A stretch of 12,299 nucleotides of DNA, taken from the NCBI GenBank assembly GCA_964583985.1, contig CAZOYD010000086.1:1-12299 (forward strand), in the 5' to 3' direction. The DNA is from an uncultured archaeon. Its GTDB lineage: Archaea > Asgardarchaeota > Lokiarchaeia > Sigyniarchaeales > SOKP01. Shown here one piece after another: positions 8,070 through 11,868 of the stretch. Each line of letters opens with the position of its first letter. Positions within the stretch are counted from its first letter, which is position 1. Made by a program: the position numbers and the translations under genes. The notes beneath the pieces were generated by a model that worked only from the letters and a program-made list of their open reading frames with translations, had not been told where the DNA came from and did no database searches.

Positions 8070-8942
8070 ATGGGTCTTGGTTCAATAAAGTATAAAGGTA
8101 AAAAATTTAATGTTAAAGAAGATCTTGGGCACATAAGATTACAGATAAATTATATGGATATAGAAAATATAACGGAATTAAAGGGACTTGAAAAGCTAAA
8201 ACATGTAACTGCCATAGATTTTTCAAATAACGTGATATCAGAATTAAATGGATTGGAGGAATTGACCAATCTTCAACAGCTATTTCTTAACAATAATCAG
8301 CTTAAGGTAATTGAGGGTCTTGAAAATTTAACAAAACTGGATCGTATATTTCTGGATGGAAATCAAATTCAAGAATTGAAAGGTCTCGATTCTCTAACCA
8401 ACCTTCAATGGTTAGAAATTAATAAGAATGATATTACTGAACTTAAAGGATTAGATAAATTAACCAGCCTTATTAAATTATCACTTCATGAAAATCAAAT
8501 AAAAGAAATAAAAAATTTGGAAGCATTAATTAACCTTCATTCTCTTCTGCTTAATCGTAATCAAATAACAGAAATTAAAAATTTAGAGGCATTATCTAAC
8601 CTTCATTTATTATTCCTTGATCATAACAAAATTACGGAAATTAAGGGGTTAGATACATTAATAAACCTAACGAATTTAAATCTTAATAATAACGAGATAA
8701 CAGAAATTAAAGGATTAGATAAGTTAGTAAATTTAGAAACCTTGTATCTTGATACAAATCAATTAACGGATTTTCATAACTTAGAAACATTAGAAAACCT
8801 TGAGAAACTCAATCTTTTATTTCTTGGTTTTAATCCAATAAAAGCAGAAGAAGAACAATTTAAGAAAGATATGATGGGAGTAGATAATATAAAAAAATTC
8901 ATAGATTCTTATAAAGATTGGAAACAAGTAATTGGAAAATAA
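8070..8942 (+). CDS. Leucine-rich repeat protein, SDS22/internalin-like 22-aa repeats, cytoplasmic
   Basis: 290 aa. Nine consecutive 22-aa repeats (IKGLxxLxNLxxLxLxxNxIxE) are followed by a capping repeat ending LFLGFNPI. No signal peptide or TM segment is visible. Confidence 0.95.
   Translation: MGLGSIKYKGKKFNVKEDLGHIRLQINYMDIENITELKGLEKLKHVTAIDFSNNVISELNGLEELTNLQQLFLNNNQLKVIEGLENLTKLDRIFLDGNQIQELKGLDSLTNLQWLEINKNDITELKGLDKLTSLIKLSLHENQIKEIKNLEALINLHSLLLNRNQITEIKNLEALSNLHLLFLDHNKITEIKGLDTLINLTNLNLNNNEITEIKGLDKLVNLETLYLDTNQLTDFHNLETLENLEKLNLLFLGFNPIKAEEEQFKKDMMGVDNIKKFIDSYKDWKQVIGK
8178..8771 (+). repeat. Coding 66-bp tandem repeat array (9 LRR units)
   Basis: 66-nt periodicity, for example recurring GAAATTAAA/GAAATAAAA followed by AATTT(A/G)GA or GG(A/G)TTAGAT. 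Confidence 0.85.
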
Positions 8943-9075: not shown

Positions 9076-9738
9076 TTGAAAAATATTGAAGATGAATATC
9101 AAAAAATAATCGAATTTTATCCGAATGCAATTTTTGAGAAAAATAGTATTTATCAAGTAAAAATTCCATTGAAAGATAAAATTTGTTTAAAAATCAATTT
9201 TAAAAATTACCCAAAAAAACCAAATGTTAATTTAATAAGTAAAGATGGTTACATTTCTCAAAAAATTGATAAAATTATTCCTTCCCTTAAAAGATGGGAA
9301 AAAAACCATCCTCCTAATATTGTAGATCTCATTAATGAAATAGTAACTTTCATTAAAAATTTCGAATCTAATGAGATAAAGATCAAAAAAGAATTACTAT
9401 ATGGAATTTTAGCGTTATGTAAAAAGCAACATCCAAGAGAAATATTAGGGTTTCTAAGATGCATTGATGGAGTTGCGATAGAATATATCTTACCTCCAGG
9501 AGTAATTACTTCTAACACTTCTGGGTTATTTTCTTCTAATAGATTGGGTGTTGATTTAACACTCAAGGGTTCTGTTCATTCACATCCTTCTGGAAATCCT
9601 AATCCTTCTCTTGTTGATATTAATAATGTTTTTAAAACAAGAGAATTCAATTTTATTATCGCTTATCCATATAATGTGAGTAAAATAAAATGCTTTAATA
9701 GTAAAGGACGGGAGATTGAGTTCAGAATATTAGATTAA
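9076..9738 (+). CDS. UEV/E2-fold domain fused to a JAMM/MPN+ (Mov34/JAB) metallo-isopeptidase; about 220 aa from a probable TTG start at 9076 (ORF track start 8932)
   Basis: The C-terminal half has the catalytic Glu in HPRE (9439-9441) and a complete H-S-H-x7-S-x2-D motif, HSHPSGNPNPSLVD (9577-9618). The N-terminal half shows a UBC-fold pattern: helix IEDEYQKI, strands, YPKKP (9208-9222), then IPSLKRW and helix IVDLINEI. The JAMM call is firm. The UEV call and the start site are inferred. Confidence 0.85.
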   Translation: MKNIEDEYQKIIEFYPNAIFEKNSIYQVKIPLKDKICLKINFKNYPKKPNVNLISKDGYISQKIDKIIPSLKRWEKNHPPNIVDLINEIVTFIKNFESNEIKIKKELLYGILALCKKQHPREILGFLRCIDGVAIEYILPPGVITSNTSGLFSSNRLGVDLTLKGSVHSHPSGNPNPSLVDINNVFKTREFNFIIAYPYNVSKIKCFNSKGREIEFRILD

Positions 9739-9925: not shown

Positions 9926-10228
9926 ATGGAAGATTATACACCCGAAAGAAAAATAGTGAGGATGGAACAAATATACGCTGTGGGAGGGACATTTAACGAT
10001 CCCTCAGATTTTGCTAGAACTGTTAATAATAATTTAGTTATTCTTCGGGAAAGTAATAAAAACTGTAAAGTAAAAGATATAAAATTTAATGTATTTAATG
10101 ATCAGCGTTATACAAACACTCCACCAGTATATCTTGCATTTATTATAGCAGAAGTTGATGTAGATGTTACTCCTGAGCCAGAAATCAAGAAAAAAAAAGG
10201 AAAGAAAAATAAAAAGAAGAAAAAATAA
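9926..10228 (+). CDS. Small hypothetical protein, Cse60/DUF2758-like beta-alpha-beta-beta pattern with an acidic linker and poly-Lys tail
   Basis: 100 aa. The pattern F..TVN..L....KVKDIKF....YLAFIIAE resembles Cse60-type domains (recalled similarity, not searched). The tail is KKKKGKKNKKKKK. A TATA-like TTTTTAAA lies near 9871-9878. Confidence 0.7.
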   Translation: MEDYTPERKIVRMEQIYAVGGTFNDPSDFARTVNNNLVILRESNKNCKVKDIKFNVFNDQRYTNTPPVYLAFIIAEVDVDVTPEPEIKKKKGKKNKKKKK

Positions 10229-10452: not shown

Positions 10453-11868
10453 ATGTTAGCAGAATCTCTAAAATCAAAATTTCCAAAAAAGGGACATAAA
10501 GCTTTTCTCCATGAGAAGGGATTAAAACCAACAAAAGAACTATTCCCAAATGGCGGTGGTCCACAAGATGATCTGCTTTATGGTTTTTTATGTCTCGTAT
10601 ATGATGGAGTTCATGAAGTCCTTGAGTTAGAACAAAAAATGAAAAAACTATTTATTTCGACGATGAGACAAAATACGATCACCTCAAAGGATGTGAAGGA
10701 GTTTGTTAGAATTGCTTTAGTTAAAAAATTTATAATATTAAATTCAAAAAATGAAATAGTGCTGAGTAAAAAAGGAAAAATATTCGTAGAAAGTTGTTAT
10801 GTGGAAATTCAGCATGAATCGTATTGGATGGGAAAATTTCTGACTGAGAAAGCTGTTTTAGGTCTTACAGCATTTTTCTTGATAATTTTATCAATTTCTA
10901 AAATTATAATTGGTATTCACTTAAATTCGCGAGGAATGATGAATGATGGATTTGAAAATTTAACAGATCTAATAAAAGTGGCAATAATTCTTGTAATTGG
11001 AATAAATCTTAAAAAAGATAGATTAGCTAGTATAATTATCATTAGCATGATGTTATTCACTGGTATAACTCTTATATTATCAAGTATTGAAACAATCCTA
11101 TTTCCAAGTGTCATTGTTCCTACTGTTCAAGGATATATCTTAGTTCTCGTATCAATATTGATGAATTTAAGCCTAATGTTCCTTAAAGGGCTTGTTGGAA
11201 AATCATCTGGGAACTTAGCTCTTATTAGCGATTCAAAAGATTCAAAATTAAACATGTTAATATCTGGAGGAGTCATGATTGGATTGACTTTTGCGATTTT
11301 TAAAATATACTTTATAGATTCTATTATTGCCATTATTATTGCAATTATTATTTCGAAGGAAGGTATTGAACTCCTGATTGAAATTATCAAAAAAAAAGAT
11401 GAACTAGATATAACTTCAATTAAATTGTTTTCTGATACCCTTTATAGTAGTCGCCTTTCTGGATATTTACTTGGTAATATTAAGGATGATCATCCCACCA
11501 GACAAGGACTAATATTACAGTTCGAAGAAGGAGTGAATCTTGGAAGAATATATTATTGTGGATTTGCCGATTTTTTCTATGATAAGTTAGGTTCTGAGAT
11601 TGCTAATATCTACTTAGAAAAATTGCTTAAAAATAATGTGATTAAAGAGTATGACGAGAAACTATATTTAACAAATAAGGGAGAAGAATCTCTTAAAAAA
11701 TTGAAGAAGTTAGAATATAATACTCACGAGCGTTATCATAATAAGGAAACCTCCATCAATAAAAGATCCGTAATAATACCATTAATATGCATCAGTTTCC
11801 TTATTATACTGATTATATTTGGTCCTCCAATTATTAACGCGATCAATAATTGGATGGCGAGTATTTAA
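10453..11868 (+). CDS. Cation diffusion facilitator (CDF, cation efflux)-like membrane protein with N- and C-terminal winged-helix-like domains and an extra C-terminal TM
   Basis: 471 aa with six central TMs. CDF signatures: KIIIGIHLNSRGMMNDGFENLTD, GKSSGNLALISDSKDSKLN, and FIDSIIAIIIAIII. Wing-like motifs IVLSKKG and LYLTNKG lie in the soluble flanks. Confidence 0.8.
   Translation: MLAESLKSKFPKKGHKAFLHEKGLKPTKELFPNGGGPQDDLLYGFLCLVYDGVHEVLELEQKMKKLFISTMRQNTITSKDVKEFVRIALVKKFIILNSKNEIVLSKKGKIFVESCYVEIQHESYWMGKFLTEKAVLGLTAFFLIILSISKIIIGIHLNSRGMMNDGFENLTDLIKVAIILVIGINLKKDRLASIIIISMMLFTGITLILSSIETILFPSVIVPTVQGYILVLVSILMNLSLMFLKGLVGKSSGNLALISDSKDSKLNMLISGGVMIGLTFAIFKIYFIDSIIAIIIAIIISKEGIELLIEIIKKKDELDITSIKLFSDTLYSSRLSGYLLGNIKDDHPTRQGLILQFEEGVNLGRIYYCGFADFFYDKLGSEIANIYLEKLLKNNVIKEYDEKLYLTNKGEESLKKLKKLEYNTHERYHNKETSINKRSVIIPLICISFLIILIIFGPPIINAINNWMASI

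Follow-up and report, generated by a model that had tools for sequence, protein, structure and literature searches.

The window, i.e. the whole stretch of 12,299 nucleotides that was analysed, contains a gene that encodes a UBC-fold domain and a JAMM metalloprotease domain in a single chain. This raises the questions whether the fusion is real, which types of UBC fold and JAMM domain it joins, and what the first might do for the second. We find that the fusion is real and conserved; it appears to be a variant within a known enzyme class that has so far gone undescribed. The gene and its parts are:

9076..9738, + strand: whole gene, UBC-fold module and JAMM2 metalloprotease (220 aa, TTG start)
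9076..9369, + strand: compact non-catalytic UBC-fold module, residues 1-98 (AF2 model, structural and profile matches)
9208..9222, + strand: UBC-fold turn Y45-P46-x-x-P49 (P46 invariant, P49 at least 90% in 57 sequences)
9295..9297, + strand: invariant W74 of the UBC fold (alignment of 57 sequences)
9373..9735, + strand: JAMM/MPN+ domain of AfJAMM (archaeal group 2) type (phmmer and structural match)
9439..9441, + strand: catalytic Glu122 of HPRE (aligned with the catalytic Glu of AfJAMM)
9577..9618, + strand: zinc-binding motif H168-S-H170-x7-S178-x2-D181 (from the sequence; intact in 131/152 fusions)

A conserved fusion gene

The translation of 9076-9738 gives 220 amino acids followed by a stop codon. 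The same frame is already open from 8932, and a start at the upstream TTG 8932 was considered and rejected. Close homologs are nearly all 219-225 aa long and the alignment begins at residue 1, therefore TTG 9076 is taken as the start codon.

A sequence search found 69 homologs at E<=1e-3, and we collected 152 distinct fused sequences, 131 of them with the full E and HxH-x7-S-x2-D motif, so the fusion is not due to chance. Contigs of three other salt-marsh samples cross the domain junction without a gap, i.e. it is not an assembly chimera either. The window DNA is present in salt-marsh metagenomes, and no RNA samples carrying it are listed. The names of the homologs point to a host within Promethearchaeota/Lokiarchaeia. 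The dN/dS ratio (NG86) is below 1 for all domains, with medians of 0.18-0.47 that are rough in AT-rich DNA. The spacing from W74 to PxE is 46 in 132 of the 134 fusions measured, mostly close kin. A promoter scan gave chance level, with a model of the wrong promoter type.

The initial annotation described a two-domain protein of about 220 aa with an intact JAMM active site. Both statements are confirmed by the translation, by the motifs read directly from it (E122, H168, H170, S178 and D181 are all present) and by the 152 fused sequences. A literature search that included accession numbers returned no description of the fusion, a mention within supplementary tables being possible. NCBIfam has no family for the fusion, nor for the dead paralog or the RING protein described below, and the database names of the orthologs are Mov34/MPN or hypothetical.

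The protease half is of the archaeal JAMM2 type

The JAMM half scores above the cut-off of Prok-JAB (E 1.3e-6), and its MPN fold is matched by Foldseek with an E-value of 1e-9. AF2198/AfJAMM is the only PDB sequence match at E<0.1 (phmmer, E 5e-16). In structural comparisons, AfJAMM (1r5x) gives a VIA Z of 17.1, an rmsd of 1.2 and 37% identity over the structurally aligned residues, followed by PfJAMM1 (Z 13.8, 18% identity), Rpn11 (Z 12.8, 16%), BRCC36 (Z 12.1, 18%), Sst2/AMSH (Z 10.5, 17%) and Cap3 (Z 9.1, 17%). The role of the catalytic Glu, E22 in AfJAMM, has been described (PMC300881). The fold, the full E/HSH/S/D motif and the lack of a long Ins-2 and of C-terminal helices are shared with AfJAMM and HvJAMM2. 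These proteins differ in being single-domain, whereas the Lokiarchaeial fusion has the N-terminal module as well as dead and AN1-TPR paralogs. The protease is thus of the AfJAMM/archaeal group-2 (JAMM2) type and not of the Rpn11, AMSH or BRCC36 type.

In a quick tree of 93 rows, which do not include HvJAMM2, all 37 fused JAMM domains group together (SH-aLRT 84) within the single-domain archaeal homologs. They are set apart from the five Rpn11-like proteins of the host by a branch of about 2.5 changes per column. AU tests on a smaller set rejected neither clade hypothesis, and joining the fused and Rpn11-like domains gave p 0.49, so the trees neither fix the root nor prove one fusion event. A single origin of the fusion is compatible with these sequence data.

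AfJAMM clusters with HvJAMM2, and both were inactive when purified; JAMM2 was proposed to require partners, and deletion of jamm2 stabilises a sampylated substrate, as do deletions of cdc48c and pan2 (PMC4895103). The intact motif of a protein in this clade does not establish deubiquitinase activity, since neither AfJAMM nor HvJAMM2 is active alone, and the label of deubiquitinase given to the gene is not supported (PMC4895103, PMC300881).

The N-terminal module is a non-catalytic UBC fold

When predicted alone with AF2, the module obtains a pLDDT of 90 and a pTM of 0.83. The model consists of a helix, four strands, a short helix and a long helix, the last at residues 82-98. L71 lies upstream of W74, and the Cys, the HPN motif and the C-terminal helices of E2 enzymes are missing. 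Among 48,161 chains, the best 50 structural matches are all UBC/UEV/RWD-class proteins or complexes thereof. The scores are tied between Ube2W-like E2s (VIA Z 9.8), VPS37A (9.7) and TSG101 (9.3), while the RWD of GCN2 reaches a Z of 7.6 and BRE/BABAM2 is absent among the best 50. The HPx[VI] flap is found in none of 149 fusions. Cysteines in the module are sporadic (31 of 152 fusions) and nearly all precede the YP; one sits at position 60, between YP and W, another lies beyond W, and none is conserved. Without the flap and without a conserved Cys the module is not a catalytic E2. The conserved residues are mostly at fold-core positions in the 57 aligned sequences.

By sequence alone the module is harder to place. 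A search against the PDB gave nothing significant, and ESM Atlas feature searches gave no usable match. Pfam UEV (PF05743) has no match in the 44 fusion members examined nor in the host genome, and Pfam RWD (PF05773) does not match the module in these 44 members. The match to Pfam BRE is weak and sub-threshold (E 0.021). In profile comparisons, the Asgard UEV-Vps23 profile is matched with 1% (hhalign, E 0.055), while the closest kin, the repeats of a Lokiarchaeial RING protein, reach 99% (E about 1e-17). UEV-Vps23 was detected in genomes from the remaining orders of the class, but in none from the host's own order; Lokiarchaeia have been reported to lack it (bioRxiv 10.1101/2023.07.25.550441).

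The initial annotation read this half as a non-catalytic UBC-fold domain of TSG101/Vps23 type. The first part stands on the AF2 fold, the structural matches, the missing HPx[VI] and the lack of a conserved Cys. The second is not supported, given the structural tie, the profile results and an order without detectable UEV-Vps23. The module shares with TSG101/Vps23, VPS37A and the Asgard UEV-Vps23 domains a non-catalytic UBC fold without C-terminal E2 helices (Z 8.5-9.7), but it is about 25 residues shorter and has no HPxV flap. Unlike UEV proteins, the fusion has no coiled coil or steadiness box, as the module runs directly into the JAMM domain, and there is no ESCRT cluster. With RWD and atypical UBC-like adaptors (GCN2, FANCL, BRE/BABAM2, kinetochore RWDs) it shares the YPxxP and the absence of a Cys, at Z about 7-7.6. 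However, it has no significant direct sequence match to them and is restricted to one class. To our knowledge, there is no eukaryotic RWD-JAMM fusion.

A module family of Lokiarchaeia

The module was detected in 150 of the 160 Lokiarchaeia genomes; the 239 Asgard genomes from outside the class yielded no match. It is a Lokiarchaeia-only, promiscuous and mobile UBC-fold family that is mostly missed by Pfam; an Asgard RWD-like domain has already been noted in the literature. The family is relevant to how non-catalytic E2 folds turned into adaptors.

The RING protein (L053:3642-5312; also L036, L037, L040, L047) has 370-630 aa and consists of three to four UBC/RWD-like domains in tandem, with a RING-like finger at the C-terminus. 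It is present in 98 of the 160 genomes of the class and was not found outside. The last repeat matches E2s and Pfam RWD, the finger weakly matches RBX1, and in one such protein Pfam BRE is matched below threshold (E 6e-4). Tandem repeats followed by a RING are a FANCL-like layout, which makes the protein a candidate E3 ligase. It was not found in the host genome nor in many carriers of the fusion. It is therefore not an obligate partner of the fusion. Apart from a truncated dead paralog, no other intact module carriers were found in the host either, i.e. homotypic docking is not general.

The module is also fused to Longin-like, degenerate ABC-ATPase-like and AN1-TPR domains, or placed between a coiled coil and TPR-like helices (Longin, ABC-ATPase and coiled-coil-TPR fusions: L238, L235, L237, L240, L045, L230, L208, L232, L239, L244).

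Distribution of the fusion and its paralogs

The fusion family is present in 87 of the 153 genomes of the order, including five matches clipped by contig ends, and in 0 of the 7 genomes of the class's other orders. No member was detected in about 40% of the order's genomes, many of which are incomplete. Orthologs with intact motifs are found in two cultured Lokiarchaeia, Promethearchaeum syntrophicum (QEE15077.1) and Ca. Lokiarchaeum ossiferum (NEF87_001365), and in Ca. Harpocratesius. Full-length matches to the JAMM2 profile lie in frames of at least 217 aa inside the order and of 124-203 aa in other Asgard classes, which carry a single-domain JAMM2. No module gene lies beside the single-domain JAMM2 at the loci checked in these classes.

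A catalytically dead paralog clade was found in 16 genomes (loci L130-L145), the host included, where the copy (G000:C47 1-273) is clipped by the contig end. The catalytic Glu is changed to Lys, HSH to ISR and Asp to Asn, and this replacement motif is invariant, as are two Cys. The dN/dS is 0.18, a rough value. No active copy was found in 7 of the 16 genomes, and no dead copy in about 70 carriers of the active form, many genomes being incomplete in both sets. Since the two forms are often found apart, an obligate MPN+/MPN- pair is unlikely. A complex prediction for the active form and the dead paralog scored 0.04 against a mark of 0.32, which gives no answer either way.

In 10 of the 16 loci, genes read by eye as hypE and/or hypD (hydrogenase maturation) adjoin the dead paralog, which in most cases is flanked by both. 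Three other degenerate fusions (P0082, P0088, P0090) have lost catalytic residues differently from the main dead clade. The host also has a second, broken copy of the fusion with about 80% identical DNA, an internal stop and a frameshift (G000:C122, L004, minus strand, 4627-4496 and 2159-1707). About 2.3 kb with a thioesterase-like and an acetolactate-synthase-like gene separate its two parts.

There are also longer AN1-TPR-module-JAMM forms, one of which starts 100 nt after a CDC48-family gene. This adjacency is seen at one locus, and sister AN1 forms are without it. The locus (L196:1-4197) contains, co-oriented, the CDC48-family gene, the AN1-TPR-module-JAMM2 gene, an unknown gene of 205 aa and a small GTPase. 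Two related genomes have a probable CDC48, identified by eye, at a distance of two genes from a single-domain JAMM2. Both placements are weak context for a link to Cdc48.

Possible functions of the fusion

The reading that we favour, to which we give roughly an even chance, is that of a JAMM2 zinc isopeptidase that acts on a ubiquitin-like tag and has an RWD-style docking module, by which a substrate or partner machine is recruited. The protein would be the order's ortholog of archaeal JAMM2 (AfJAMM/HvJAMM2 type), predicted to remove or mature ubiquitin-like tags. We infer that in the ancestor of the order a JAMM2 gained a copy of the mobile, class-specific module. Unable to conjugate, the module most likely acts as a docking surface through which the protease is recruited to the substrate protein or a partner complex, for example of the Cdc48/proteasome pathway. 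The partner function that a single-domain JAMM2 presumably requires would then be provided in cis. RWDs are established as domains for dimerisation and docking (PMC6601020). For group-2 JAMMs, whose active site is perfect, no activity has been demonstrated, and a requirement for partners was proposed (PMC4895103). As no activity of these relatives alone has been demonstrated, the natural fusion offers a direct test, with and without the module, of what they need. Its value lies in this handle on JAMM2 activation and on Lokiarchaeial adaptor modules, rather than in a missing link to ESCRT or BRISC.

Alternatively, the fusion could be a one-chain reader-eraser, in which the module binds ubiquitin or a Ubl in a UEV-like manner and feeds the JAMM site. 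We consider this unlikely, even if ESCRT-I UEVs (VPS37A, TSG101, Vps23) are among the best structural ties and the module is repeatedly found together with RING, AN1 and JAMM domains, which all belong to the ubiquitin system. Inactive UBC folds such as VPS37A and RWDs are not known to be general ubiquitin binders, which we count against it. Of the 122 TSG101 residues that the match spans, 28 are unaligned, and in the model a two-residue turn takes the place of the ubiquitin-binding tongue of TSG101. The first hairpin of the Asgard UEV-Vps23 domains is also short, and yet they bind ubiquitin at 0.7-7 micromolar (bioRxiv 10.1101/2023.07.25.550441). The module matches their profile poorly and, unlike E2s and Asgard UEVs, has no HPxV flap, and it is also found on Longin and ABC-like proteins.

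It is rather doubtful that the module is an activating or tag-reading partner that makes the fusion a self-sufficient active JAMM2. Together with the dead paralog this would be an independent archaeal version of the BRISC-like logic of UBC adaptor and MPN+/MPN- pair, within an undescribed Lokiarchaeial network of module proteins. BRISC and BRCA1-A (BRCC36 MPN+, Abraxas MPN-, BRE) have the same parts, i.e. an active MPN, a dead MPN and a UBC-like module. However, there the parts are separate subunits and the JAMM is on the Rpn11 side, while the Lokiarchaeial active and dead forms do not obligately co-occur.

Another alternative concerns the substrate, which might be a sulfur-carrier/SAMP-type Ubl or another amide instead of eukaryote-like ubiquitin, with the Rpn11-like proteins of the host as the dedicated deubiquitinases. 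The host has five Rpn11-like JABs, one of them inside a Ub-E1-E2 operon, and five ThiS-family matches; the neighbours of the gene are metabolic. For JAMMs that are distant from Rpn11, Ubl and E1 are the only associations (PMC6043591), and AfJAMM cleaved no ubiquitin derivative (PMC300881). We judge this improbable as a separate explanation, as it leaves unexplained the gain and retention of a UBC-fold module common to RING and AN1 proteins, and overlaps in part with the docking explanation, which leaves the tag open.

Still less probable is a purely structural or allosteric role without an outside partner, in which the module would pack against the JAMM domain, give order to the Ins-1 loop or self-associate. 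The linker is short and nearly fixed in length, and the fold-core position of most conserved module residues would fit. Ins-1 (residues 153-156) is the least confident stretch of the full-length model and is disordered in AfJAMM (PMC300881). However, the pTM of this model is low (0.56), with low confidence in the domain orientation, which suggests no strong interdomain contact, and the module works in many unrelated architectures.

The idea of the initial annotation that the fusion is an ancestral Rosetta-stone form of the TSG101-AMSH or BRE-BRCC36 partnership is highly improbable: eukaryotes do use the same two folds in cooperation, the sub-threshold BRE matches of the module and of one RING protein point the same way, and a tree in which fused and Rpn11-like JAMMs are joined was not rejected by the AU test, but the fusion occurs in one order, the module was found in none of the 239 Asgard genomes from other classes, these classes have single-domain JAMM2, the AfJAMM-type domain is separated from the host Rpn11-like proteins by a long branch, it is the Rpn11-like type that clusters with Rpn11, BRCC36 and AMSH (PMC6043591), and in Asgard such domains are as a rule shuffled in a lineage-specific manner (bioRxiv 10.1101/2020.10.19.343400). 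The likeness to eukaryotic complexes is more likely convergence than ancestry. JAB peptidases beside E2-like domains are also found in the bacterial CBASS Cap2/Cap3, BilABCD and JAB-E1 fusions, and the bacterial JAB-E1 fusions and inactive E2 domains have been described (PMC11354881). The bacterial systems differ in being operonic and in serving conjugation or defence, while the Lokiarchaeial fusion has no operon and is distant from Cap3.

Gene neighbourhood and host ubiquitin system

The fusion has no conserved neighbourhood: the neighbours are variable, with no link to the ubiquitin operon, and no ESCRT-like gene is conserved among the recurring neighbour clusters. In the window, an LRR gene (8070-8942) lies upstream and a Lys-tailed gene of 100 aa (9926-10228) downstream, both co-oriented with the fusion. 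This flanking pair is common to only two close relatives, and the trio was rejected as a conserved unit, being found at only 3 of 73 loci.

The Ub-E1-E2-Rpn11 operon of the host sits apart from the fusion gene. The genome has E1, E2, ThiS/MoaD-like carriers and, on G000:C3 and C29, Ub-like genes; some of these proteins extend beyond the GG/AG. The ubiquitin cluster (G000:C29 19360-25835) contains two Ub-like genes ending in AG and a short tail, an E1, an E2 and a Rpn11-like JAB, and also encodes a membrane protein that ends in a Cys-rich finger. Further downstream in the window (10453-11868) there is a membrane protein of the cation-efflux family with a C-terminal winged-helix match, an unusual pairing.
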